In this document: positions 38,749 through 64,000 of the stretch, one piece after another | How the letters are laid out: each line of letters begins with the position of its first letter | Position numbering within the stretch: the first letter of the stretch is position 1 | Source: Thecamonas trahens ATCC 50062 | Lineage: Eukaryota; Protista; Apusomonadida | Length of the DNA stretch: 64,000 bases | Reading direction: 5' to 3' | Assembly: GCF_000142905.1 (NCBI RefSeq) | Contig: NW_013657655.1 | Span: 372,001-436,000 of the forward strand | Made by a program: the position numbers and the translations under genes | The notes under the pieces: model-generated | Told to the model about the DNA's origin: nothing | The model's database searches: none | Seen by the model: only the letters and a program-made list of their open reading frames with translations

Positions 38749-39198
38749 GTTGAGAGTTCGAGTAAAGTGTGTGTGACTGATGGACGGCTGGCCACCATTC
38801 GACCATTCGTCACTTTGTTGTATTGATCCTGTCCTCAATTCCCACTATGCCTTCGAATCGAATCCATTGCACACAGTGCCAATGAACCGAATCCCATTAT
38901 CAATAGCCAACGATTGTTGTTGTTGTTGTTGGGGAGGGGGGGAGAGGGGATTAATCGTTCGCCAACGATTATCTCTCGGGTGCCTTGCTTTCGTTCCCCC
39001 CCCCCCCCCCGCCCCTCCCCCCCCCGCTCCTCCTCCTTTTCCTTCCTCAACCTTTGCTGTTCCTGCCGCCGGCCGCCGCTCGACTCACGCCGCCAGCGCC
39101 TGCAAGGGAAGGGCGCGTGCGACAGAGTGTGGGAGGGGGAGAAGGCACACCTCACCCTCCCTCCCCCCCCCCCTCCCCCTCCCATATCTACCTCTGGC

Positions 39199-40797
39199 AT
39201 GCACATCCGCCTCGTGGTTGTGCTGGCTGTCGCCGTGGCGGCGGCGGTGGTCTTCCTCGGCGGCGAACCCGTGGCGGCGACGGCAGGCGCGCGGGTGAGC
39301 TCCGGCCTGGCGATATGGATCCCATTCTCGGAAACACCCGCAGCGAGTGCAGCCGACGTGGCGCCGGTAGGTGGCAAGCCGTCTGCGGTGGACGTGGCAC
39401 TGGAGCTAAAGCACGTGACATGGCTCTCGTCGCTGGCACCGGCGGGCGGGTACGAGCCGGCGGGCGTGGCCATCGCGCCTGGGTGCGGGACGTGTGGCGC
39501 GCCCGGAGTGAGCGACAAGCTCGCCATCAGCTCGCTGGCGGATGCGAGCTTTGCCTCACAGCGCGGGTTTTCCATCGATCTCTGGTTCCGCGTCCATAAC
39601 ACGTCGCTACACGCGCCGCTGCTCGACGTGGCGCTTGCAGCCGGCGACCTCGAGCCCGGGTGCTCGTCGGGTGCGACGACGCTGCGGTCGTTTGCGGTGG
39701 CCCAGCGCGGCGATGTGCTCGAGTGGTCACTGTCGGACAAGATCAGCTCGGTAGACACGTGTCGGACGTGCGCGTCGGCAGCCGGCACTCTTGTGGCCGG
39801 CGAGCTGTACCACGCCGTCGCCGTGGTCTCTGACGGCACCTCCCCGTCGGTTATGGACCTGTACATCAACGGGGTGTCGGTTGCGTGCGGTGCGTCGGTG
39901 AGCGGCGCGGCGACCACCATTTCGGCGTCATGGGTGACTGGGCCCAACTCGCGCTGGCTGGCGCTTGGAGGCCGGGTCTCTTCCTCGGACTACGACCTGT
40001 GGACCGGCAAGCTTTACTCGGTCGCGCTGTATGCGGCGCCGCTGACGCCCAGCGAGGTGCAGACCAACTACCGCGCCGGCGAGTACAACCATGTTCCGGT
40101 GGCGCTGGCGCACACGGTGGCCACGCTCGAGGATACGGCGGTCTTGGTCCAGCTCAACGCTTCGGATCCGTACGACTCGGTCTTCACCGCGCGGATCACT
40201 ACGCTGCCACTCTCGGGCGCGCTGTACCAGTCGAGCGAGGCCGGCGGGCCAGCGGTGGCGGGAGCAATCACGACCGTCCCTACGGTGGTCACCTCGGCGT
40301 ACAACCGGGTGTGGTACGTGCCGGCGGCCAACGCGTCTGGCGTGGGCCTCGCCTCGTTCGCGTACACCATGGACGATTCGGAAGCTGTGTCGGCACCGGC
40401 GACGGTGACGGTCGACGTGAGCGCGGTCGACGATCCGCCGGCGGTGCTGGCGTCTGTGGCGGCGGTGGCAGCCGGCGGCGGGGCGACGGCCATTCCGGGC
40501 CTCTCTGTGGCCGAGCCCGACGGCGAGACGCTGAGCCTCGTCCTGCAGGCCGACTCGGGCCTGCTCACTCTCGGCTCGCTGACCGGGCTCATTTGCCGGG
40601 TTGGCTCGTGCGCCGGAGACACTGCGCTGATGGTGGAGGGCTCCGCGACGGCGCTCAATGCCGCGCTCGGCTCGCTCTCGTACTCGACGCTCCTGCTCGC
40701 CTCGGGCTCGGACACCGTGGTGGCGCGGGTTAACGACGCGTCTGGCGGGCCGTGGGCCGAGGCTTCTGTCGCCGTCACCGTCACTACGTCGTGCTGA
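39199..40797 (+). CDS. Secreted protein: LamG/ConA-like domain + cadherin-like/bacterial Ig repeats
   Basis: Signal peptide MHIRLVVVLAVAV. LamG FSIDLWFR...YHAVAV...LYING...LYSVALYAAPLT. Ig-like NHVPVA...TLEDT...SFAYTMDD...VTVDVSAVDDPP. Confidence 0.75.
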   Translation: MHIRLVVVLAVAVAAAVVFLGGEPVAATAGARVSSGLAIWIPFSETPAASAADVAPVGGKPSAVDVALELKHVTWLSSLAPAGGYEPAGVAIAPGCGTCGAPGVSDKLAISSLADASFASQRGFSIDLWFRVHNTSLHAPLLDVALAAGDLEPGCSSGATTLRSFAVAQRGDVLEWSLSDKISSVDTCRTCASAAGTLVAGELYHAVAVVSDGTSPSVMDLYINGVSVACGASVSGAATTISASWVTGPNSRWLALGGRVSSSDYDLWTGKLYSVALYAAPLTPSEVQTNYRAGEYNHVPVALAHTVATLEDTAVLVQLNASDPYDSVFTARITTLPLSGALYQSSEAGGPAVAGAITTVPTVVTSAYNRVWYVPAANASGVGLASFAYTMDDSEAVSAPATVTVDVSAVDDPPAVLASVAAVAAGGGATAIPGLSVAEPDGETLSLVLQADSGLLTLGSLTGLICRVGSCAGDTALMVEGSATALNAALGSLSYSTLLLASGSDTVVARVNDASGGPWAEASVAVTVTTSC

Positions 40798-43771: not shown

Positions 43772-46700
43772 TCACAAGCTGCCGAGCTGGCCAGCGTTGA
43801 CCAGGTCAAGGAGCTCGGCGATGGTAGGGCGGAGGGCCGGATCAGTGTCCCAGCAGCGGGCCACAGTCTCGCGCACGCCGTTGGGCAGCAGGTCGACAGC
43901 TGGCCGCCAGCCGGAGAGCAGCCGGTAGCCGACCTCGAGCGCGTTTTCGCCGCGGAAGGCGGCCTGGCCAGTGGAGAGCTCGTAGAGGAGCGAGCCAAAG
44001 ATAAAGACGTCGGTCTCCGGGCGGGAAGCTTCGCCGCGCAGCGTTTCAGGTGCGGTGTACGCTGCCGAGGGAATGGCGGTCATCGTTCCGAGGTGCATGC
44101 GAAGGATGTCCATGCCAAAGTCGGTGAGCGCCACGGCGGCGACTCGCGGCCGGGTTAGTGCCGGTTCCGTGCGGAGCTTGACAAAGACGTTGTTTGGCGA
44201 GAGTGCACCGTGGCCGGCGCCGGTGGCGGCGTGCAGCGCCGCGAGCGCTACAAGCAGGCATTTGACCAGGCACAGTCTGTCTAACGACGACATTGAGCCC
44301 GCGGCCTCAGTCATGGACGGATGGTTGAGCTGTGCAAAGACGACAGCGATGTACGGGCTCTCGACGCAAAGCCCGACCGGCCCGGCGAGCGCCGAGTGTG
44401 CTCCTCCCGCGCGCGAGGCCTTGGCTGTGCTGGCAGCAACACTGATGAGCTGCGCAGGCTCGAACCGCTGCTTCAGCAGAACCTTGACGGCAACAGGGCC
44501 AAGCGGTGTTGTTGCCGAGTAAACGGTGGCGTACGAGCCGAGCTCCCGCTTCCCGCCCTGGCCAATCAGCGCCGCGATGTCCCGGGCTGAGTACAGCGTC
44601 ATGAGGCCTGCTGGCTGCGAGCGGCGCATTGACATGGAGTGCGTCAGCGAGGCGGAGAAAGACGTGTCGTGTGGGAGGCCGATGATTGCATCGACTTCAG
44701 CGAACGACTGGCCCACGTCAGGGTGTGAGCTCATGTCATCAGCGAGGACAGTTCCGAGGTTGTCGTCGATGGACGCAAGAGCGGTCTCGTCGTCCGACAC
44801 AAGCGCCTCGTCGGCGTCGTTGCTTGACTCAGTCAGTGCGCTCGGGCCGGCGACATCACCGTTGGTCCGCGTATCTACGCGCGGCTTGGGCTTTTGCTTA
44901 ATGCGGAAGAGGAGGGCCGCATCGGCGGCCACAGGCTCGACAAGCAGCTGGTCATGCCCGGGCATGGCCATGTCGTCAAAGAGCGACGGCCCAATGTAGA
45001 CGCCCGGTTCGAGGCTGGTTAGGCCGCCGGGACTGGTCGACTCGCAACGTGAAAGCGACGACACCGAGTCTGTGTCGGTCGGCTCGAGCCGGAGGAGCGA
45101 CGGCGGGAGCGAGCCGCCAAATGCGGCCTGCCATACGTCCTTCAGCTCGTCCATGACCGCGCCGTGGAAGACGAGCTCGTCGGCAGTCGACGGCGCCGCA
45201 CCCTGAGCCGTCGAGGTGAAGACCTGCAGCGCCGAGGTCGAGGTGATACTACCATGCGCAGCGACGGCAAGCAGCGGGCCAACACGCTTACAAATGGAGA
45301 GTATGCCTTGTATGACGTTGCCGAGCTGGCGCGGATCCTGCAGCGAGATAGTGACCGATTCAAGGGTCCACGAGAGGATGGCGCCGTGGGCCTGGGTCGC
45401 CACCACGCGCGTCCTAGCGTGGAATCGACGCAGAGCCTGGGCGGTGGCGTCCGGGGCCAGAATGAGACGCGAGCCGAGTTTGGCGACGACGACGTGGACG
45501 AGGACAACCGAGCCCGACGGAGCGGCCGGTGACGACGGCGGAATGACGTTAGTTGGGTCATAGAGCGAGGCGAGGCGCGAAACAATCTGGGCCGGCAGTG
45601 GCCGCGCCACCGGGTCGTGATGCCAGAGCGCCTGAATGAGCGAGCGAAGCTGGCTGAGCTGCGGCGGAACGGCGCGGATGTCTGGCCGGCGGCCGTGGAT
45701 GACGTCGAGGGCAAGCGCCAGCGGGTTGACTTGCGGGTAGAGCTCTGCGCGGGATGCCAGCTCCCATAGTGTGATGCCGAGCGCGTACATGTCGGACGCG
45801 GTGGTGAGCGCGGTGCTGCCGCCGATAAGCACCTCAGGCGCGGCCCAGAAAATGGAGCCGACATTGGGTCCGGTGCCTGCGGCCGACGTCTCTGTGGTCA
45901 TTGGCGACTGAGGCGGCGTGAGCCGTGGCGTGGTCGAGTGCTCTGGGACCGGGCCGACCTTGTTCCTACGGCGGGTGCGGGTCGCTGATGCGCGGCTGTC
46001 GTGTGCGCCGCCCGATTCAAAGAGCGAGATCGACATACCGGTTGTGACCAACTCCTGAGCGCCGTCCGAGGCGTCGATATTGACTGGGCGCCCGGCGGGT
46101 GTGGCAGGCGCAGAAGAGTTGGCGGCGTTCATGCAGAGCGCGGGCAAGGGCTGACCGGTTGGCGCCTTGATTGAGGCGAGGCCAAAGTCGGCAATCTTGG
46201 GTACCCAGTTTCCGTCAAAGAGCACGTTGAGCGACTTGAAATCGCCGTGGACGACGCCGGCGTGTGCCAGATACTGCAGGCCAAGGGCAATGTGGTGGGC
46301 CCAGCGGAGGACAATAGACGAGTCGAGGAAGAATGCGTCTGAGGCGAGGACGTCGGCGAGATTCCCGCGCGACATAAACTCGGTCACAATCGCCGGCGGA
46401 TCGAGGTGGATGCCCATGAAGAGCACAATGTTGGGGTGACGGAGGCGGAGGAGCATGCTCGCCTCGTCGACAAACTCACGCATCTGCCGGCCCTGCAGCG
46501 GGCCTGCACGGGTTCTCTTGACAGCCACCTGGGTCCCGCGCCACATGCCGCGGTAGACGACGCCATATGAGCCGGTACCCACCACCGGCCCGAGGCTCAC
46601 GTCCTCGGCTGGGATGACCAGCTCGGCGTCCGACTGGAGGCGGAAGGTGGTGACCGACCGGTGGCGGAGAACGATGATGGCGACGACAGCAACAACGGCG

Positions 46701-48367
46701 GAGCAGACGCACGCGGCCGCGAGCGCGATGGCGACAACAGCCGCAGTTGAGAGCGCACCCGCCGACATGCTCACAGACCGAGAAGGTGGCGAGAGCTTAA
46801 GGGTGTACCCGAGGCGAAGTTCAGACGAGACCTGTAGACCAGGAGCGTGCGCGATGGCGCGGATCTCGTGGGCACCGTCAGTGGAGAGCGAGATATGCTG
46901 GGCAAAAACGAGGGCGTCGGTAGTCGGCTTGGTCCCATCAAGAGTGTAGTAGAGAGTGGCGCCGCGGGTGAGGCTCGAGAGGACAACCGCAAGCTCGTCG
47001 GTGTATGTGCCAGACGGATGCGAGGCTGTCGGTGCGACGGTAAGCGAGAGGATTGACGCGAGGCGGACGGCCTCCAGGCTCGGAAGCTCGGCGTCAAAGT
47101 GGGCGGCCAGAGCGGTGGCGGATCGATTGGCCATGGCGTCAAGGCCAAAGGAGAAGGCGCTGTACTCGAGGACGAGATCAATGACGCCAAAGCCAGCAAG
47201 CGAGCGCTCAAAGATGTCCGAGGCAGCCGCGAGCTTGGCCTTGGCCACTTCCGAGCGCGGGTGTGTGACGAGCGAAAAGAGTGAGGGTCGCAGCGGCAAG
47301 CCCGACATGACGCTTGCGGCGGTGAAGGCAGCGGCATAGTGGGTCGTGTTCCCGGCGTGGGCAACAAATGCCATGGCCTCATCTGGGTGAAGGGCGGTGC
47401 GCGGGACAGCAAGAGTGACGAGCGTCATTAGAACGCCCGGGATCGAGTTTGGCGGCGCCGAGCCACGAGCGCCATCGTAGGCCGGAAAGACAAAGGCACC
47501 GATGTCAGCGGAGGGCATGCCCGCGAGGATGGGAAACATGGTAAAGGCTTCAAAGCCGCAGAACATGGCAACGTGGCCATGGGCCATGTCCTGAGGCAAA
47601 TACGGGGCCGTGCCGTTGACGTGTGGGTTGGGCACCCCAAGATAGCCGGCGGTCATCAGATCGGCGAGCTCGTCAAAGGTGGCACGGACTCGCGGATCGG
47701 TGAATGCGATGCGGCCGTTGAAGAACTTTTTGTAGAAAGCGTTGCCATGCATCCGCAGCGCAAGCTCGTCAAAGTACGCAGTGTTGGGAAAGAGCGGCGT
47801 GTCAGCGGCGAGACAGCCGATACCGGCGGCGGTCACGGCGGCGCACACAGCCTTGAGCTCCGAGAGGGTGCGCGGCGGCGAGAGGCCAAGCGCGTCAAAG
47901 ATTGGCACCGAGTACATGCACATGTTAGGCTCGGCCGAGATAGGGACAGCGTACATGGCGCCGTCTGCGCCGCGCGAGCGGGCGATGGCAGCAGGCACAA
48001 CGTCGTCCCACACGCCAAGCGCATCCCACACGTGGTCGAGAGGATAGTAGTTGTCGCCAGTCAGCAGATTGAGGCCACCACCACCAAGGTATGATGGTAC
48101 AACGTCTGCACCACGCGAGGCTTGTAGCCATGGGGTGTACTTTGAGGCATCGGGTGAGAAGGCGACGTAGATGAGGTCTGCTTGGGCACCTTCTGGGCGG
48201 CTGTTGTACTCGTTGACGAGAGCGGCGAACGCGGGCGAGGTACCAATGCGAGGATCAATGGAGGTGTATACCCGTAGCCTCGGACGTAGCCCGTGGACAC
48301 CGTTCATCCACACCAGCAACCACACCAGCAACCACACAAGCACCAGCCCGCTCCTCGATGCGTTCAT
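43772..48367 (-). CDS. Receptor-type TKL kinase: signal peptide, ABC-type solute-binding ectodomain, Fn3-associated/CHB_HEX_C domain, TM, kinase, degenerate cyclase-like domain, pseudokinase
   Basis: ATG 48367. DGAMYAVP, GLSPPRTLSEL (SBP family 1). PSGTY...LYYTLDGTKPT. Kinase 1 GTGSYG/VAVK/HGDFKSLN/DFG/APE. Kinase 2 HGALSPNN/DFG/APE. Confidence 0.85.
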   Translation of the reverse strand: MNASRSGLVLVWLLVWLLVWMNGVHGLRPRLRVYTSIDPRIGTSPAFAALVNEYNSRPEGAQADLIYVAFSPDASKYTPWLQASRGADVVPSYLGGGGLNLLTGDNYYPLDHVWDALGVWDDVVPAAIARSRGADGAMYAVPISAEPNMCMYSVPIFDALGLSPPRTLSELKAVCAAVTAAGIGCLAADTPLFPNTAYFDELALRMHGNAFYKKFFNGRIAFTDPRVRATFDELADLMTAGYLGVPNPHVNGTAPYLPQDMAHGHVAMFCGFEAFTMFPILAGMPSADIGAFVFPAYDGARGSAPPNSIPGVLMTLVTLAVPRTALHPDEAMAFVAHAGNTTHYAAAFTAASVMSGLPLRPSLFSLVTHPRSEVAKAKLAAASDIFERSLAGFGVIDLVLEYSAFSFGLDAMANRSATALAAHFDAELPSLEAVRLASILSLTVAPTASHPSGTYTDELAVVLSSLTRGATLYYTLDGTKPTTDALVFAQHISLSTDGAHEIRAIAHAPGLQVSSELRLGYTLKLSPPSRSVSMSAGALSTAAVVAIALAAACVCSAVVAVVAIIVLRHRSVTTFRLQSDAELVIPAEDVSLGPVVGTGSYGVVYRGMWRGTQVAVKRTRAGPLQGRQMREFVDEASMLLRLRHPNIVLFMGIHLDPPAIVTEFMSRGNLADVLASDAFFLDSSIVLRWAHHIALGLQYLAHAGVVHGDFKSLNVLFDGNWVPKIADFGLASIKAPTGQPLPALCMNAANSSAPATPAGRPVNIDASDGAQELVTTGMSISLFESGGAHDSRASATRTRRRNKVGPVPEHSTTPRLTPPQSPMTTETSAAGTGPNVGSIFWAAPEVLIGGSTALTTASDMYALGITLWELASRAELYPQVNPLALALDVIHGRRPDIRAVPPQLSQLRSLIQALWHHDPVARPLPAQIVSRLASLYDPTNVIPPSSPAAPSGSVVLVHVVVAKLGSRLILAPDATAQALRRFHARTRVVATQAHGAILSWTLESVTISLQDPRQLGNVIQGILSICKRVGPLLAVAAHGSITSTSALQVFTSTAQGAAPSTADELVFHGAVMDELKDVWQAAFGGSLPPSLLRLEPTDTDSVSSLSRCESTSPGGLTSLEPGVYIGPSLFDDMAMPGHDQLLVEPVAADAALLFRIKQKPKPRVDTRTNGDVAGPSALTESSNDADEALVSDDETALASIDDNLGTVLADDMSSHPDVGQSFAEVDAIIGLPHDTSFSASLTHSMSMRRSQPAGLMTLYSARDIAALIGQGGKRELGSYATVYSATTPLGPVAVKVLLKQRFEPAQLISVAASTAKASRAGGAHSALAGPVGLCVESPYIAVVFAQLNHPSMTEAAGSMSSLDRLCLVKCLLVALAALHAATGAGHGALSPNNVFVKLRTEPALTRPRVAAVALTDFGMDILRMHLGTMTAIPSAAYTAPETLRGEASRPETDVFIFGSLLYELSTGQAAFRGENALEVGYRLLSGWRPAVDLLPNGVRETVARCWDTDPALRPTIAELLDLVNAGQLGSL

Positions 48368-53143: not shown

Positions 53144-56100
53144 TTAGAGCAGGCCGTGGCGCATCTTAGCCGGCGGCTGGCTCGAGTCGGTGTTGCTGGC
53201 GTCGAGGCTGCGGTGATCGCCGCGACGACGCTTGCGCGACAGCGGCGGCGACGTCCCCCGCGACGGCGACGTCTCCGACGGCGACGGCTCCGAGAAGTTG
53301 CTTGCCTGGCGCATCCGGGCGAGTTGATGCGGAGTGCTGGAAAAGGCGGTGTCGTTTGAGGTGGCGGACCGCGGGTTGAGCGTGGTAGCCCGGACCTGCC
53401 AGCAGTCGATGATGACGGCGCCGCGGCCGGCAGCAGCTGCCTGGCGCCACAGCCGGCGGCTCGTGATGACGTCGCGCGCGGGCAGGTTGGCGGGATCCAG
53501 GGCCGGCAGGGCCAAGATGGCGGGAAGGGTAGTGGTGGAGATGAAGACCAGGCCTGCGTTGGGCTTGCAGTTTGTCTTGATGCAGCGGACGATCTTGGTG
53601 CCCGATCGCACACCTTGCGGCACGTCGCCGGTGGCGCCAAGGCCGACGATGCCCGGCGAGGGACGATGGATGGCGTTGTAGAAGCCGCTGACGACGTTCG
53701 AGTCGGGGTTTTTGGATCGAGCCACCAGTGCGAGCTGAGCCAGCTCGTCGTAGGAGATTGTACGGTTGGCCATCTCGATGTAGCAGCGCGGATGGACGGT
53801 GCTGGCGTCGAGGATGCCGGGACGGACGTAACGGATGTTTTTGGCATCGGGTAGAAGAGTGGCAGCATCGAGAGCGTTAAGGCGGCGGTTCTCGACATCC
53901 ATAGCGACACACTTGTTGATTGTGGCGTTGATCCGGCCGATGGAAGCGGTGGTGTTGGTTTGTGTGACGCGGGTAAACTCGAGGATGCGGTCGTAGGTGA
54001 TGTCGACGACAATGCCAAAGGCATGCGCGCCGGCATGGGCCGAGATCGGCCCCTCAGTGGAGAATCGGGCAAGAGCCAGGCTGGCGGCGAGAGCCTCGGC
54101 GATGAGTGGAGTTGTGGAGGTGGAGACGACGGCGAAGTACGACGACTCGCCGATCGCGTGCTTGTTAGTGGCAGCGAGGAAGTGCATGAACGCCTCAATC
54201 AAGATGGGCTCCTGTGCCACAAACACGATGCGACTGGCGTCACAAGGGACGCGAATCAGATGGTTGCCAAGCCACGGGATACCAGAGAGGGTGTTGTGGT
54301 AGCATGCGACCGCATCTTCGAGGGAGGACGGAGCGGTGTGGGCGATGGAGACATCGACGACAGCGAGCGGGCCGTTGGCATCGCTGTTGGCGGTGATGAA
54401 ATCGTTGTACTCGCACTTGTTGGTGTCTGAGATTGCAGCAGCAAGCGTGACGTCCGAGCGGTCGTTGGCGATGTCGAGCATGAGGACGGCGGGCGGGTCA
54501 GCTCCAGGTGCTGGAGGGAACAAGTTGGCGCGGCAGCTTGAGAGACGGTTGATGGTGGTGTAGTCGTGGGGGGTCGCAGAGGCGTCGGTGAGGGAGAACG
54601 AGATGGTTGTGGCGACGGGATCGAGATCTCCGCGGAGGTTGTTTGCTACGGCGGCCACGATGCTGGGATCGTCGTTTTCCGCGGTGAGGATAGCACGCAG
54701 GTTGCTGGCGGTGTTGTAGCGGGCGTTCTTGATGGCGATGACGACTGCGCTCGAGTCGGCTCTGAGCTTCTCAACGGCCAACTTGAACTCGTTAAAGCGG
54801 AGGTTGGGCGTCGTTGGCGGCTTGATGGCAAAGGTCGCGGCGAGGTAGCACTTCTGAATGGCCTTGTTGAACGCCTTGACGACCCAAGAACGGATGGCAA
54901 TGAGGAGTGCGGCGACAGCGGCAGTGACGGCATCGCGGTCGGCTGCTGTGATAGCGGCGTGGAGCTCGTGAAGGAACCGCTTCTCAGCAGAACGAGAGAT
55001 GGTGGTAATGCTGGCGGTGTCGGGGACCATCAAGAGAGACAGAGCGTCCTTGTCGCGGTTGCGGATGTTGATCTCCAGGCTGTGCCTGATGCTGTCGGAG
55101 ACAGTGCGAGCTGCGTCGTCGATCATGTTGCATGTGGTCGAGAGGAGAGCAGCGCCAACTTCGTCCGTGTTCTGGACGAGCGTGTTGGAGTCAGTTGCGT
55201 GGTCAGGGAATCGAAGAGGCTCATTGAGGCTTTCCACAATGAGCTCTGCGAGGATGTTGACATCATACGAACCGGTAAGGTAGTCGATGGTGGGGCCCAA
55301 GTCCTGGTCGTAACAAGCCTTGGTGTTCCGGATGGTGTCGACAGAGGTGTTGATGATGTCGGTGACGTCGGCGTTGACTGGAGCGAGATCGTTGACTTCC
55401 AGGGTACGGACGCGGCGAACGATGCGGGAGGCAGCGTTGGCGACGGTGCTGCCGGCAGCTGCACAAGCCCACTCGACCATATCCGCAAGCCAGGCGTGAG
55501 CACGAGTAGAAAAATCGAGGAGGCACGAGGCGGCAACACTAAGCAACTTGAGGTTGGTGATGTCGAGGAAGAGGTGCGGGGACGATGCGGCGCGGGCGGT
55601 GCGGGCGATCTGGCGAAGAAAAGGCCACGGATTGGTGTTGACAGGCACGGAAGCCGGGTCAATGGCCAAGAGGCAGGTCATGATAGCATCCGTTAGTTTG
55701 GCGTTGTCGTCGTCACCAAGGCTAGAGGCGTCGACGTTGCAGAGGTTGACAACAAACGGAACGCGAGCGTCGTCGATGGGGCGGGAGGCGATGGCCTGCA
55801 TGAGGTGTTGCAGGTTGTTGGCGATGGCGACACGGCGGGTGATGACGCAGATGATGTCGATAGCGGCGATGGCGGCGGCGATGTCGTCGGGCGAGGCCTT
55901 GGGGCCGAGGCCGGGGACGTCGACCGGCTCGAGGTAGGGGCCGGTCTTCCAGGGGCCAACAGCCTCGATGACGGCGCCAGGAGGGGCAGAGGCGGAGGCG
56001 GAGGCAATGACGGCGGGCATGGTACGCCACTCGACAGGCGAGATGCTTACAGGATCTGAGCAGGGCGTACGCGTCTCGCGGTCGACGATGCGGACGATGA

Positions 56101-56674
56101 GCTGCTCGCGGTTGTAGACGAGGTGGACCGGAACGGTGGTGACCGAGTTGGCGCCCGCCGAAGACGGCAGTGGCCACTGCCCAAAGAAGTCTATGAGATC
56201 AGTGATGGGCAGATCTGGCTCTTGCTTGACAGCAATGGTAGCAAGAGTCTGCATATCGGCCACGAGCTGATTGAGGCGACAGGACTTACCGCAGCCCATG
56301 GGAGCAAAAATGGCCACAGTGACACGCCGGTGAAGAAAATTGTGAGTTACAGTACGGAACTCTGAGACCTTGGCGATATAGTTGCAGTCAGTGGGGGTCG
56401 CGAGCTCTGTCGCAATCTGGAGCTGGCTTAGGCGTTGGATGCTATCGAAGGACCGGACGGGGATAAGGCCGGTGGAAGGGTAGGTGGCAAGAAAATCCGA
56501 TGTGGTTTGAACACGGCAGGCAGTGGAAGCGGTGGAAGAACAGTTGTTGGCCTTGCGGCGCTTGGCCTTGGCCTTGCGGCGCTTGGCCTTGGCCTTGCGG
56601 CGCTTGGCCTTGGTCTTGCGGCGCTTGTGGGAGGACTCGCGGCTTGAGCGAGATGGGTTGCTTGACTTCTCCAT
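53144..56674 (-). CDS. 1176-aa dynamin-like (Dynamin_N-type) GTPase with basic N-terminal repeat and divergent C-terminal domain (possibly GREB1/TAGT glycosyltransferase-like)
   Basis: Intronless ORF. G1 APMGCGKS (~56282-56305), PLPS...VTTVPVHL (G2), VDVPGLG (G3), NLCNVD (G4-like), followed by a helical region. Confidence 0.7.
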   Translation of the reverse strand: MEKSSNPSRSSRESSHKRRKTKAKRRKAKAKRRKAKAKRRKANNCSSTASTACRVQTTSDFLATYPSTGLIPVRSFDSIQRLSQLQIATELATPTDCNYIAKVSEFRTVTHNFLHRRVTVAIFAPMGCGKSCRLNQLVADMQTLATIAVKQEPDLPITDLIDFFGQWPLPSSAGANSVTTVPVHLVYNREQLIVRIVDRETRTPCSDPVSISPVEWRTMPAVIASASASAPPGAVIEAVGPWKTGPYLEPVDVPGLGPKASPDDIAAAIAAIDIICVITRRVAIANNLQHLMQAIASRPIDDARVPFVVNLCNVDASSLGDDDNAKLTDAIMTCLLAIDPASVPVNTNPWPFLRQIARTARAASSPHLFLDITNLKLLSVAASCLLDFSTRAHAWLADMVEWACAAAGSTVANAASRIVRRVRTLEVNDLAPVNADVTDIINTSVDTIRNTKACYDQDLGPTIDYLTGSYDVNILAELIVESLNEPLRFPDHATDSNTLVQNTDEVGAALLSTTCNMIDDAARTVSDSIRHSLEINIRNRDKDALSLLMVPDTASITTISRSAEKRFLHELHAAITAADRDAVTAAVAALLIAIRSWVVKAFNKAIQKCYLAATFAIKPPTTPNLRFNEFKLAVEKLRADSSAVVIAIKNARYNTASNLRAILTAENDDPSIVAAVANNLRGDLDPVATTISFSLTDASATPHDYTTINRLSSCRANLFPPAPGADPPAVLMLDIANDRSDVTLAAAISDTNKCEYNDFITANSDANGPLAVVDVSIAHTAPSSLEDAVACYHNTLSGIPWLGNHLIRVPCDASRIVFVAQEPILIEAFMHFLAATNKHAIGESSYFAVVSTSTTPLIAEALAASLALARFSTEGPISAHAGAHAFGIVVDITYDRILEFTRVTQTNTTASIGRINATINKCVAMDVENRRLNALDAATLLPDAKNIRYVRPGILDASTVHPRCYIEMANRTISYDELAQLALVARSKNPDSNVVSGFYNAIHRPSPGIVGLGATGDVPQGVRSGTKIVRCIKTNCKPNAGLVFISTTTLPAILALPALDPANLPARDVITSRRLWRQAAAAGRGAVIIDCWQVRATTLNPRSATSNDTAFSSTPHQLARMRQASNFSEPSPSETSPSRGTSPPLSRKRRRGDHRSLDASNTDSSQPPAKMRHGLL
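56547..56626 (-). repeat. Coding 21-bp tandem repeat (KAKRRKA)x~4
   Basis: TTGGCCTTGCGGCGCTTGGCC units on the + strand. Confidence 0.9.
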
Positions 56675-57212: not shown

Positions 57213-60200
57213 TACCGACTCTAGGCCGGCTAATGTAGTTGCTTGAGCTACTTTAGGCCTGCCAAATACATGATGACATCAATGCTGGCAAATGGACCCA
57301 GTGCGTGCAGGACTGCATCGTAGGTGTCGCAGTGATCAAGAAGGAGGGCCAACACGACGGCGTCGTTGATGTCGGCGGTGGGCGGTGGGGCGCCCGGGAC
57401 GGCCTGGGTGGCAGGGTTGGGCTCAGAGGCGTTGGCGTGGTCTGTAGAATCCATCACTGCTGGATAGGTACGAAAGGTGTGGTAGCGAGACAGGTGGGGA
57501 ATAAAGTTGGCCGGGTTGTACGGCAATCCGAATGTAAAACAGCGAGTGCGCGAGGCGGAAATGGGTGAGGAACGGCAGGGATTGAGGCATGCATGGGTAG
57601 GGCGGCGTGGGAAAAGTCAAGCAGGCAGCAAACAAGAGTCTTGGCGGGGGAGGAGGGGAAAGCCATGGTCAAAGTCACGTTAAGCGTGCCGCGGATCATG
57701 TTGGTTATGGTAGAGCTGATGTTGCTTCTCTTGTCACTCTTGCTGAGACAATTGCTGTCGTCGTGATGCACGTCGTCGTCCAACTCGTCCCACGCCGTTG
57801 TCGTCAGGGTTGAGGCATGGGTAAGGCGATGGGAGTGGGTGCAGGCAGAGTAAGTAGCAGCAACAAAGGAGCAGAGGGAAGGCGGGGGTGGGGATGTGTT
57901 TCGGAGGAGAGTGAGAGTGGGAGTGCCCTATCCTCGGCCAGCCAGCCGTCGGATTGGGTCATGATCGGCGGCGCAGTAGGCGGGAAGGAGGCGAGGCAAG
58001 ACAGAGCAGGCAAGGTGGGGTTGATGAGACGGAAGCAGGCAGTTGTGAGCTGCGAGGCAGAGTAGAAGAGAGTGAGGTGGAGGGAGAGCAGAATCAAAGT
58101 CAGGCCGATGATCATGGGTGCGTCATCGTGAGTCGGTGTCGGCTGGCAGCTGAGTCGGCCGGGGTGTTGGTGACGACGATGGTGACAACGGTAACGACTC
58201 GCACCAGGTCAACTGGCTCTGGGCCCATCACACTCGCACTCCTGAACCCGTTCGCCGTTCTGAAGTTCCGATCTCAGGCCCTCACCCTCGACCTCGGCCT
58301 GACTGCTCGCCTGTGTCGGGTGTCGTTCACTTGACTGCCCGGCAGCGATGCAGCGCCGATGGTCATCCACAGCAGCTACCTCGCTCGCAACGTGTGGTTC
58401 ATGCCTATTCTCTTCCTTCTCTCTCCGCAGAAGCCACAGCCTCGGCCTCAGCCACCGCCACCGCTTTGGCTCGTCGTCCGCCGCCTCAACCATCACACCC
58501 ATCGCCAGCCATCGCCATCCCCCATCCCCATCACTATCCTCATCAGCATCAGCAATATCACCAACTTGGTCATCGCCGCCTTGGGCCTGGACTTTCTCTT
58601 CTCCCGCCTCAGCAGCAGCACGGCGTCCATGCCGGCGACGAGCGGCTGGCCGTCACTCGACCACTCGCTGCTCGCCTCGGCCTCGGCCACAGCAGCAGCG
58701 CTAGCAGCAGCCGTAGCCACCACACTCGTCCCACTCCATCCATCTACACCCCCTCACCTCCTTTCCCTGTGACCACACCAGCCACTCCCCCCTGTATAGC
58801 CAGATGCAGGTCGTGCTGAGCTTGATCGGGCTTGATTTGGCTTGGCTGCGGATAGTTGAGCGGGCGGGCGAGCGAGCGGGGAGTTGCTGGCCAGCGAGCA
58901 GTCGACAGGAGACGACGACACGGGCATCAGGACACAAGATCGGGCGGCAGACCAGTGTAGTCTTATCTACCACCTCAACCCCTAATCCTTCTCCTTCGCC
59001 CTCCTTCCCTCTCCTTCGCCCTGACCAGCCCACTGGCCTCGTGTGACCCGTCGGTCCTCTCACCACCAGCTGTGTTGGTTGACAGGTGGGCTGGGGCAGG
59101 ATGGGCAAAGCGGGGAGAAGGAGGGGAGGAGGAGGTGGGGCAAGGGACTGATAGCCACTGCCACTTGTCTCACTACCCACAAGTAGATCATGCTATACTC
59201 GTGCTCTGCCTAGCCTGATCGGGGTTGTGCCGGCGGTGGACGGGTCGGCTTGGGCGGCGATCGGTGGTGAGCAGCAGGCGGTCGGCAGTGATGCTGATGA
59301 CGGGATTGTGTCGGCTGATGTTAGTATCGAGGCAAGGGGATTGGGTGGGTGAGATTGTGGGGATAGTGGATAAGTGTGGTGTGGGTAGGGTGGTTGTGGG
59401 TTGGGATGGTGGGGAGTGGGGGTCGGAGATGGGACTGGGTCGGGGGGCTGAGCACCTTCGAAGGGACACCGGGCCAACAGCTTGGGCCTGAGCCGGCGGA
59501 ACTCGGATTCTGGAATACTGCAGCTGTGGAGTGGAGACTGAGCAAGGTGGTAGTGTGTGTATGTATTAGGGTAAGAGTGTAATCAGATTGGCCATATCTT
59601 GCAATGAGTGTGATGGGGGTTGTGTGCGGGGTCGGGCGGTCGAGGGCGTGCTCAACCGCCTAGGGAAAACAAGTCGACGCGCAAGTGAGCCGAGGAAGAT
59701 GAGTGTCGATGACAGCGATATTGATACTGGTGATAGTGTGGGGTGTGTGATGACATTGGGTGAGGTTGTGGGTAGCGTAGCTGGTAGTAGGAAGGAGCTA
59801 GGTGGTGATGAAGATGGGCCTGATCGGGCGAGCGGGCGCCGGCTGGCGGCTGGTGGTCGGCGAGGCGGAGCAGTTGAGGGAGCTGGGTCGGGGCTGGATG
59901 GCTTGGAAATGCTTTTGGTTGGTGAATAGGCAGTCTGCCATGGGATGGTTAAGGGATGACGGTGTCGGAGTCGGGGAAGAGGATGGGGGTGAGCTGGAGC
60001 GGGGAGAGGAGGAGGATGAGGAGGAAGAGGAAGCCGAGTGCGCGATGGGATGATGGTGGGCTTGGCCATGGCATGGGGGTGGGAGTTGTGGCTGGGATGG
60101 AAGTGATGGTGGTGGAGTAGGGGGTGGGGTGGTCGTTTGTGGTGACGGGTGGTAATGAGTATGGTAGGGGGGATGAGGGGGGTCGTGATGTGGGAGGCGG

Positions 60201-61285
60201 GACGGGCGAAGCGGTGATGGATATGGCAATTGGGCTTGAGCATTGATGACGATGGGAATGATACGGCTGATGGGTGTGTGTGGGGTGTGGTTGATGAGGG
60301 TGGCGGGTACTTGGCCGGCAGAGGGAAGGCGGCGGACGTTAATTGAGTTGAACGTTGAATTAATTGAAGAAAAGCCGGAACCAGCGTCAAACGAGGCAAT
60401 GACGACCACAACAACAACCAAAGATCATACATGGCTTGCACAGCACACGTATGAGTAAGCCAACAGGGACTGAACAAAGCTAGCAGGCAATGGGATGAAC
60501 TCGGGTGACGTTCAGGTCGATGAGGCAGACCGCGGATGATCGATCAGATCTCCAGATCAACCATGATCACGACACAACAGGGTGAACACAAAATACATTG
60601 CATGCACAACTATTGACCATGGCCAACGACAACAAAGTTGAGAATCGATGGTGTAGTGAGCAACGGTCGATCAAGGATGTGGAAGTCAAGGTTGATGAAA
60701 ACAGGAGAGTCAAGAACAAATAAAGCATGACAAATAATGATAAAAAGCAACAACAAGAACGAAAGGAATGATCAATGGGGATGCATGTCGATTGTAGTCA
60801 ACCATCACAGGCAAAAGCAACCAAAGCAGAACATGAAGGCCGACAATAGCAACAACAAAGCATGTGGAAACATGAACGGCAACAAACAAAGAACAAGGTA
60901 AGCCACCAACAAGAGAGCAGAAAGAATCGAATGATCAATTAACAATGATCAATGACAATCAATTGAATGTCAAACAATCAAACGAGTGACGAGTGGCGAA
61001 TCATGGAAATATTGAATGACGTTCATGTCACCCACCAACCCGCACATGCCACTCGGCCGAACAAGTGACACGGGCAAGTGTCAATGGAGGGATGGGGAAA
61101 TTGAATCAGCATCAAAGACTCAATTCAGGCCCGTGCACAGCCATGTGCATGGTGGCGTCGAGGATGAGTATGGTGAAGTGGGTGGGAATGTGGATGTGGG
61201 TCATGGGTGGGATGGGTAGGGGTGGCAAGGGGGCAGTGAGTGGCAAGTGGAGTGAATGGTGGTCGGTGGGGAGAAATGGAGTGGG

Positions 61286-61351
61286 GCTAGGGTTGATGAG
61301 GCATCAGCTAGGGTTGACGAGGCATCAGCTAGGGTTAGGGTTAGGGTTAGG
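61286..61351 (+). repeat. 21-bp tandem repeat merging into interstitial telomeric (TTAGGG)n
   Basis: GCTAGGGTTGAYGAGGCATCA x2, then TAGGGTTAGGGTTAGGGTTAGG (61330-61351). Confidence 0.85.
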
Positions 61352-61418
61352 TGCAGCTTGGGGTCGGTGCCGGGGGTGAGGCTTTAGGGGGGGTGGGGTC
61401 CGTGGTCTGGCGGAGGGT

Positions 61419-61616
61419 GAGGCTTCAGGCTTCAGAGAGCTAATGCCTGAGTTCCCGAGGCTTCAGGCATTATGCCTGGCTGAGGCCTCAAGGCCTGACC
61501 CGGCAGAGCTAATGCCTCAAATGAGCCAATTAGTTCTCCCATGGGAGCTAAAGCCTCGAAGAGCGGCATTAGCTCCGAGGTCTGGGAGGCATAGGGTTAA
61601 TGCCGGGCTTAATGTC
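61419..61616. repeat. Cluster of short direct and inverted repeats and palindromes
   Basis: AGAGCTAATGCCT at 61436 and 61505; inverted GGCATTAGCTC at 61565; GAGGCTTCAGGC at 61419 and 61457; palindrome CTCCCATGGGAG at 61536-61547. Confidence 0.8.
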
Positions 61617-62224
61617 NNNNNNNNNNNNNNNNNNNNNNNNNNNNNNNNNNNNNNNNNNNNNNNNNNNNNNNNNNNNNNNNNNNNNNNNNNNNNNNNNNNN
61701 NNNNNNNNNNNNNNNNNNNNNNNNNNNNNNNNNNNNNNNNNNNNNNNNNNNNNNNNNNNNNNNNNNNNNNNNNNNNNNNNNNNNNNNNNNNNNNNNNNNN
61801 NNNNNNNNNNNNNNNNNNNNNNNNNNNNNNNNNNNNNNNNNNNNNNNNNNNNNNNNNNNNNNNNNNNNNNNNNNNNNNNNNNNNNNNNNNNNNNNNNNNN
61901 NNNNNNNNNNNNNNNNNNNNNNNNNNNNNNNNNNNNNNNNNNNNNNNNNNNNNNNNNNNNNNNNNNNNNNNNNNNNNNNNNNNNNNNNNNNNNNNNNNNN
62001 NNNNNNNNNNNNNNNNNNNNNNNNNNNNNNNNNNNNNNNNNNNNNNNNNNNNNNNNNNNNNNNNNNNNNNNNNNNNNNNNNNNNNNNNNNNNNNNNNNNN
62101 NNNNNNNNNNNNNNNNNNNNNNNNNNNNNNNNNNNNNNNNNNNNNNNNNNNNNNNNNNNNNNNNNNNNNNNNNNNNNNNNNNNNNNNNNNNNNNNNNNNN
62201 NNNNNNNNNNNNNNNNNNNNNNNN
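61617..62224. other. Assembly gap (N run)
   Basis: Run of N; hides the recombinase stop codon. Confidence 1.
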
Positions 62225-64000
62225 CCCTTCTCGTGGAGGCCAACGATGAGCTGCAGGATCGAATTGTGATCAAGGAAATTGCGCACGGCGTGCTGCGATG
62301 GCGGCACGTTCTGCTCGGCCATGTAGGCAAACAGATCGGCGAGCGTCTCCTTGTCCTCTCGGTTCCAGTCCGCACGGGCGACCGAGCCAGGAGTGTCGGG
62401 CTGGCGGCGGCCTCGCGTTGAGCGCGACGAGGTTAACGGGGTTGACGGTGTGGCGACGGCGTCAAAGTTGAGACCCACCGAGGCGTCCGCGTCCGAGTCG
62501 GCAGTCGGGCGAGCCACCGACGAAAGCAGGCGGAAGAAGACACCGTCGCGGGAAGCCAGCACCGTCTCGCGGACATGCTGGTAGACGGCAAGCCGGGCAG
62601 TGGTGAGACCGCGAAGCTCCCGGGAGTAGAAGACCTCCGAGGTCTCGCGGGAGTGACCCATGCCAAGGTTGAGGATGGCATCAAGGGCAGTGTCGCACGG
62701 CGAGTCGACAAGAACTTGATCAATGTGCTTGCGGATGAAACGAGAGGTGGCAAGCGCTGCAAAGTCCTCAACGACATCAGGGTAAGCATCGAGAGAGCCA
62801 TCGTAGGCGATGACAGCGGCCTCCAGCGCGTTGTGGACAAGTCCAGCAGCTCGTGCAGCGCGGTCAATGTCGCCCGAGAGGCGCTGCGAGGGGTTGCGCC
62901 AGTGCGGCAGTGCCAGCGGTGAGTCGAGAATGCCATCAATGTTGAGCTGGCGGACTCGGGCGTTCATGCGCAGAAGCATCTCGACCACGAGACGCGACAG
63001 CGGCAGCGGCTCGGTGACGATGTTCTCGTTCCGCTTGTTCTTGGTCGCCACGTTGATGTAGACAATATCATTGAGGGCGGCGACAATGCGGTCCTGACCA
63101 TCAAATGCAGCAAGCGCAGCGCTCGGGTAAGCCGGCTTGGGCGAGGCGTCCAAGGTGGTGTCGTCACGTGGGGTGAGCGGGGCACGGAGAGCCTCGGCGG
63201 TCATGGAGGTGATGGACGAGAGACGCGGCGGACGGCCGCAGACCAGCATGTTGAAGCGGGCGACGAGAACAAGCAGCGGACCGTACTCCTTGTAGGTCTC
63301 GATGGTGAAGTCGAAGGATGAGTGCAAGACACCCGAGTGGATGAAGGCGATGAGCAACTTGGCGCCGATGAAAGCGTACATGCGCGGCGTGAACTTGGCG
63401 TGCTGGACACGACGGGCGTGGTCAATGAGGTACGACTCGGCGCGGAGGGCCTTGAACTTCTGGAAGGTGGCCATGAGCGCCGAGAGAGCGTCCCAGATTG
63501 ACTTCCGGGTCGCCACAACCATGGTGACACGCTGATCAAACGTCGGGGTAAGGACCGAGTTCGCCACGTAGCCAAGCGAGGTGTCGATGAGATCACGGAG
63601 CGCAATGGCAGCATCGTACATGGTCGAGGCAGAAGGCAACGAGTCTTTGTCGGCCATGAGCAGGTAGTTGAAGAACAGATGGAAGCGGCCGGAGTTGTTC
63701 AACGCCCACGACGAGACTCTCCGGGCAAGCTCGTCGCCCGAGAGTGGCTTGACCGGCTGGTGCGGATAGAACCCGACGACCAGCCGCGGAATCCAGTTGA
63801 GGCGAGTGGAGACGCCGTGGTTGGGGCGGTGAGGGCGATGACCTCGTTCCACGAGTCAATAACAGCAACGCTGTAGACCTTGTACTGTGCATTGGACAGC
63901 GTAAGTCGAGCAGGGTACGACCACTGGGTGCCAGCAGGAACAGCAACCGAGGCGCGAAGTGCATCAACAAAGTCGTCCTCGTAGAGCGGAACGACGGGCA
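62225..64000 (-). CDS. Tyrosine recombinase/integrase (eukaryotic YR-element type); both ends outside readable sequence
   Basis: Catalytic residues in canonical order: GRPPRLSSITSM (R), ATKNK (K), SRFIRK (R), MGHS (H), EVFY (Y). C-terminal small helical domain DWNREDKETLADLF...PPSQHAV. A second open frame continues from ~63825 to the window end. Confidence 0.75.

Follow-up and report, generated by a model that had tools for sequence, protein, structure and literature searches.

In the marine flagellate Thecamonas trahens, what is encoded by a gene whose product starts like a large GTPase and ends in a domain of doubtful kinship? The gene, AMSG_06097, lies on the minus strand of a 64,000-nt stretch of T. 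trahens ATCC 50062 (contig NW_013657655.1, positions 372,001 to 436,000; hereafter the window). A reading of the letters alone (the sequence-only reading) had proposed a nuclear dynamin-like GTPase possibly fused to a divergent or inactive glycosyltransferase (GT) domain of GREB1/TAGT type. Our best explanation, held tentatively, is that the AMSG_06097 product is a dynamin-like P-loop protein that is likely nuclear and likely oligomerises by way of a helical stalk. Its C-terminus is possibly a dead descendant of a TAGT/GREB1-type GT-A domain, a relative of enzymes that glycosylate DNA bases, and would now serve as a binding module.

AMSG_06097 is an intact orphan gene with one paralogue

The main exon is an uninterrupted frame of 1176 codons (53144-56674, minus strand), and the annotated AMSG_06097 model is identical to its 1176-amino-acid (aa) product, P0001, from residue 12 onward. 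All segments quoted in the sequence-only reading were found in P0001, in the order and at the positions given there. Third-position GC content (GC3, 0.77) and the observed/expected (o/e) CpG ratio (1.19) are within the host range. AMSG_06097 is a real, intact gene, and an orphan: a phmmer search of 1.84 billion representatives at E 0.001 returned two proteins only. One is a 174-aa environmental fragment (P0003) that is 98% identical to P0001 and clusters with the T. trahens AMSG_06097 record of 1227 aa. The other is a T. trahens paralogue, AMSG_12143 (P0004, XP_013755628.1; E 2.4e-7), so that the search for the same architecture in other eukaryotes, which the sequence-only reading had called for, left this paralogue as the only other relative.

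Word-index searches with P0001 (646-2058 aa) and AMSG_12143 (under 1177 aa) gave no match, no relative turned up in locus scans, run with either the protein or the two-paralogue alignment, of genome collections from viruses, metagenomes and prokaryotes, and PDB sequence searches were empty except for basic-patch noise. For the C-terminal part, tblastn of the domain against phages gave no match at E 10, and an Atlas search with residues 730-1110 gave no usable match.

Natural variants of AMSG_06097 lean synonymous, as purifying selection would have it. A single estuary contig covers 53147-56540 without a gap and with 30 differences, and it continues into the sulfate-permease gene. Four runs together list 37 variant sites, 18 synonymous and 19 non-synonymous (pN/pS 0.37, binomial P-value 0.0025, with no model of transition bias); run X1 alone gave pN/pS 0.53 (P-value 0.065). 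Within the C-terminal domain, 8 variants are synonymous and 5 non-synonymous (pN/pS 0.22, P-value 0.008). We regard this evidence of purifying selection as moderate, since transition bias was unmodelled and some contigs were under depth 5. At codon 142 (56250-56251) two adjacent variants, both among the non-synonymous ones, are common to three wild runs; one of them alone would create a stop, while together they encode Trp. Runs X11 and X12 hold pieces of the gene at a depth of about 2, and no run listed as carrying the gene was marked as RNA. In X1 the depth of the gene differs from that of its neighbours, a difference that we do not read as copy number.

The N-terminus resembles dynamin-superfamily GTPases

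Assignment of the P0001 N-terminus to a dynamin-like GTPase domain is well supported by its motifs and by feature comparison. Its G1 and G3 motifs (Table 1) align with those of AMSG_12143, in which G1 (residues 116-123) is, unlike that of P0001, a canonical GxxxxGKT and G3 is DIPG at 266. A candidate G2, SVT (residues 177-179; VTT at 178), aligns with SVS in the paralogue. The two GTPase domains share 26% identity (pairwise BLASTP E 1e-17). When residues 95-420 were searched against the ESM Atlas, Dynamin_N/MMR_HSR1 clusters scored 0.91-0.93, the score of 0.93 going with 167 shared features, on a background of 4-10% of shuffled proteins scoring 0.9, and the best ten family-bearing hits all fell into this same family or clan. 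Pfam, NCBIfam and PHROGs gave no real match for P0001 itself; for AMSG_12143 the Pfam matches were weak (MMR_HSR1, E 0.0014; Dynamin_N, E 0.036, below the cut-off). Judged from these comparisons, the GTPase reading of P0001 is beyond chance.

The G1-G3 set named in the sequence-only reading is therefore present as regards G1 and G3, with G2 represented by a candidate Thr. No match to the canonical G4, [NT]KxD, was found in the first 420 residues of P0001 or AMSG_12143, and because of this strict membership of the dynamin superfamily is incomplete. Like the large GTPases of that superfamily (Dynamin_N, PF00350; bacterial dynamin-like proteins, mitofusin/Fzo, Mx and the nuclear GTPase SLIP-GC/NUGGC), P0001 combines a P-loop with an insert between G2 and G3, followed by a long, likely helical region. 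It differs from them by the missing G4, by having no detected transmembrane or PH-like tip, and by adding a 320-aa alpha/beta domain plus basic termini. Similarity of the middle region to AMSG_12143 is not significant (z 1.4-1.5), and no hydrophobic window there exceeds 1.9 (Kyte-Doolittle, KD, 19 aa).

Both basic stretches described by the sequence-only reading, the N-terminal (KAKRRKA)n and the C-terminal RKRRR, were located in P0001. These patches make a nuclear location likely. KAKRRKA is encoded by a 21-nt tandem duplication that is nearly perfect, and the run is for this reason probably a recent expansion, though AMSG_12143 likewise carries a basic N-terminal patch.

A C-terminal domain common to both paralogues

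The C-terminal domains of the two paralogues are 25% identical, and domain order is the same in both. Global alignment of P0001 residues 800-1095 with AMSG_12143 residues 785-1080 gave z 4.5-4.9 (0 of 500 shuffles) under three scoring schemes; local alignment of the domains gave only z 2.8 (7 of 300 shuffles). The register of the core was unchanged with or without an N-terminal anchor. Features kept in both proteins include the hydrophobic strands, AEALAA, FG...D, S.DEL, GL, N.G and SRR. In P0001 the ordered segments start at residues 815 (RIVFVAQE), 846 (YFAVVS), 885 (AFGIVVDI), 1008 (GIVGLG), 1041 (GLVFIS), 1067 (RDVITSRRL) and 1082 (AGRG). Since the domain aligns in both paralogues, the two-domain architecture, on this sequence evidence, predates the split of AMSG_06097 and AMSG_12143.

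Unlike P0001, the annotated AMSG_12143 model continues (residues 1100-1960) with major-vault-protein repeats followed by a macro (ADP-ribose) domain. Either the gene model is a merged one or the protein is a conflict-type GTPase-X-vault-macro fusion.

Comparison with TAGT glycosyltransferases

The TAGT family, reportedly defined by Iyer et al. 2013 (NAR), who may already mention a GTPase-TAGT architecture, is a GT-A family (PF20691) that comprises the T6 beta-glucosyl-HMC-alpha-glucosyltransferase, gp27 of Nonlabens phage P12024L, kinetoplastid JGT and the GREB1 C-terminal domain. The P0001 domain is alike in size, in the predicted strand/helix order of the N-half and in a hydrophobic fourth strand that ends in Asp. 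It differs by some 70 additional residues beyond the Asp strand, by the absence of the GG motif and by its partner, which is a GTPase in P0001 and an inactive SF2 helicase in GREB1, while phage TAGT adjoins TET/JBP.

AlphaFold models of the domain from one or two sequences failed (pLDDT 32 and 35). In the model of the paralogue domain, the partly confident first 80 residues (pLDDT 50-68) are predicted as strand-strand-helix-strand-helix, followed by a low-confidence strand at GALID, which is the predicted order of the TAGT N-half of GT-A. GT-A is absent among the 50 VIA rows listed for the low-confidence model, an absence that excludes nothing. Unsupervised placement of TAGT blocks fell on the first three strands named in the sequence-only reading and, for P0001 alone, on the GIVVD strand too.

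Several results weigh against the proposed identity, along with the missing G4. No match of the domain to PF20691 or to a profile from the TAGT alignment was obtained by Pfam, hhalign, threading or block order, with profile sensitivity being low (two-sequence query, phage-only templates). The hhalign probability for TAGT was under 1%, and the block-order test gave z 1.2, a score that 17 of 150 shuffles also reached, as did 18 of 60 permutations of the order. Thus, the resemblance of segment order to the GREB1 C-terminal domain, noted earlier by eye, did not exceed chance in this test, and the profile comparison proposed with it came out negative. Moreover, the register of TAGT rows on the domain shifts with alignment settings. 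What survives of the inactive GT-like domain is a conserved, predicted alpha/beta domain that does not carry R...DDD...ED; a sequence, profile or fold link to TAGT was not obtained.

The TAGT family motif is given as R...DDD...EDY/F in 10.1101/2023.12.21.572611. Among the collected TAGT rows, a set picked by a TAGT profile, DD[DN] is found in 85 of 85. P0001 residues 765-1100 contain no DD, DxD or ED[YF], and the candidate DDD strand, AFGIVVDI, has a single Asp, as the sequence-only reading had it. The AMSG_12143 domain has one DD and one DxD, neither of them at the aligned site and neither conserved. In neither paralogue do the expected places carry the DDD and ED motifs, which makes a classical active enzyme unlikely; should the domain be GT-A, both copies are very likely pseudoenzymes.

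On balance, we lean towards TAGT/GT-A ancestry for the C-terminal domain. The strongest competing explanation, a less probable one that we nevertheless take seriously, joins the dynamin-like GTPase to an unrelated, lineage-specific alpha/beta domain (for example RsfS/nucleotidyltransferase-like or a novel fold). The negative profile and block-order results are what such a domain would give, and the likeness to GT, including the predicted N-half order and the Asp-ending strand, would then be generic strand-helix alternation.

GREB1-like proteins occur in many protist lineages, according to Shin 2021 (PMC7968844). No published description of a GTPase-TAGT fusion or of AMSG_06097 was found in a literature search that mostly did not cover subscription papers; Fig. 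S3A of Shin 2021 may mention it. A TAGT profile run against longer proteins matched 1 of the 7989 scored, a phage-like fusion without a GTPase, which is weak evidence of absence. An 804-aa protein (P0007) has an N-terminal TAGT domain and a remainder that by its look resembles a phage portal with a Zn finger; Pfam names TAGT alone above the cut-off, and the protein, from a single contig, is possibly a read-through artefact. Nigel gp1, considered as a possible TAGT, was rejected as ParB-like, and one mis-trimmed sequence (L035) was removed from one TAGT profile.

Table 1. Features of AMSG_06097 and P0001 in the window
Feature	Positions	Strand	Remarks
Annotated 5' exon of AMSG_06097	57270..57454	-	Prediction-based start site
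Predicted GT..AG intron of AMSG_06097	57269-56643	-	Joins 5' exon to main exon
Main exon of AMSG_06097 (P0001)	53144..56674	-	Open reading frame (ORF) of 1176 aa; annotated protein 1227 aa
(KAKRRKA)x3, residues 22-42 (starts 22/29/36)	56549..56611	-	21-nt tandem repeat; putatively like a nuclear-localisation signal (NLS)
Dynamin-like P-loop GTPase domain, approx. residues 104-330	55685..56365	-	Predicted from Atlas features and paralogue alignment
G1/Walker A APMGCGKS, residues 124-131	56282..56305	-	Matches [GA]x4GK[ST]
G3 DVPG, residues 252-255	55910..55921	-	DxxG after hydrophobic strand
Degenerate G4 region NLCNVD, residues 310-315	55730..55747	-	Without [NT]KxD; aligned to NYFD in AMSG_12143
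Ala/Leu/Ile-rich middle region, approx. residues 331-690	54605..55684	-	Putative stalk-like helical bundle
C-terminal alpha/beta domain, approx. residues 770-1095	53390..54367	-	Common to AMSG_12143; candidate degenerate GT-A/TAGT fold
AFGIVVDI, residues 885-892	53999..54022	-	Would match TAGT DDD strand; one Asp, likewise one in AMSG_12143
RDVITSRRL, residues 1067-1075	53450..53476	-	Would match TAGT ED helix; without ED(Y/F)
RKRRR, residues 1147-1151	53222..53236	-	Within Ser/Pro-rich tail; putatively NLS-like

Genomic context

AMSG_06097 had also been proposed to be a cargo gene related to conflict or DNA modification, with a suggestion to look for tyrosine recombinase (YR) or TET/JBP genes nearby. 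It lies among ordinary host genes, which encode a sulfate permease, an SBP-kinase, a PHD/bromo protein, a kinesin and a P-type ATPase. None of the 22 distinct window ORFs scanned, drawn from 164 stop-to-stop frames that are at least 150 aa long and mostly shadow frames, matched Tet_JBP, an integrase family or a thymidylate-synthase-like hydroxymethylase. A same-strand ORF at 62227-63855, 5.5 kb from AMSG_06097, runs into an assembly gap (61617-62224), which together with the window end hides its surroundings, and has YR-like motifs by eye (RxxRK...GHS...FY order); it found no match in Pfam, NCBIfam, PHROGs, PDB or plasmids.

The upstream stretch 58400-61600 is repeat-rich and CpG-depleted (o/e 0.64-0.70), and many diverged, high-depth contigs from wild samples map there. 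Interstitial TTAGGG repeats lie at about 61321-61360, and 61361-61600 is on deeper contigs than its flanks. The stretch looks like a subtelomeric repeat or an element end.

Taken together with the by-eye motifs, such an intervening stretch would suit AMSG_06097 being cargo of a Crypton/Starship-like mobile element with its recombinase at 62227-63855. We consider this unlikely: the YR call is without library support, GC3 and CpG are host-like, an independent estuary contig (52486-56606) links AMSG_06097 with the sulfate-permease gene, and there are no terminal repeats among the repeats listed. The cargo idea is thus not supported.

Elsewhere in the window, a receptor-like protein (43772-48367, minus strand) combines a bacterial-type solute-binding domain, an Fn3-associated domain, a likely membrane helix and protein kinase domains. 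The ORF at 38827-40797 (plus strand) joins a Laminin-G-like domain to bacterial Ig/cadherin-like repeats, an adhesin architecture of bacterial type, here in a eukaryote.

Possible role and implications

If AMSG_06097 is the protein that we tentatively prefer, a dynamin-like GTPase with a dead GT-like domain, its basic patches would carry it to the nucleus, where the G domain and helical middle may assemble in a nucleotide-dependent manner, as expected from Mx, GBP and bacterial dynamin-like proteins. The GT-like domain would provide target binding instead of sugar transfer and recruit the GTPase to modified nucleic acid, a nucleotide-sugar or a glycosylated target. The role could plausibly be cell-autonomous defence, which is consistent with the orphan status of the gene and the divergence of the paralogues.

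A bolder version, which we think improbable, places AMSG_06097 and AMSG_12143, as fast-evolving and catalytically dead members, in a so far undescribed family of nuclear dynamin-like GTPase-TAGT fusions spread across eukaryotes. In this version a one-time glycosyltransferase of DNA bases would have turned into a reader of hypermodified (hydroxymethylated or glycosylated) viral DNA that triggers an Mx/GBP-like GTPase polymer. Least probable of all is an active, DxD-independent glycosyltransferase that is controlled by the GTPase and modifies DNA or protein: both paralogues retain one Asp where the candidate DDD strand ends, SRR persists in the last helix, and in some GT-A enzymes basic residues can stand in for the metal, but the profile-chosen TAGT rows invariably carry DD[DN], R...DDD...EDY/F is missing, and Tet_JBP matched none of the scanned ORFs.

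Were the viral-DNA reader real, it would be an innate sensor of modified viral genomes in a sister lineage of animals and fungi. Should GT-A ancestry prove false, AMSG_06097 would be a large orphan GTPase that carries an unassigned domain. If GT-A ancestry is true, the GTPase-TAGT architecture extends to apusomonads, with transferase catalysis lost in both paralogues and selection retained, which would point to a binding role of the fold and offer a handle on GREB1-like proteins outside animals.
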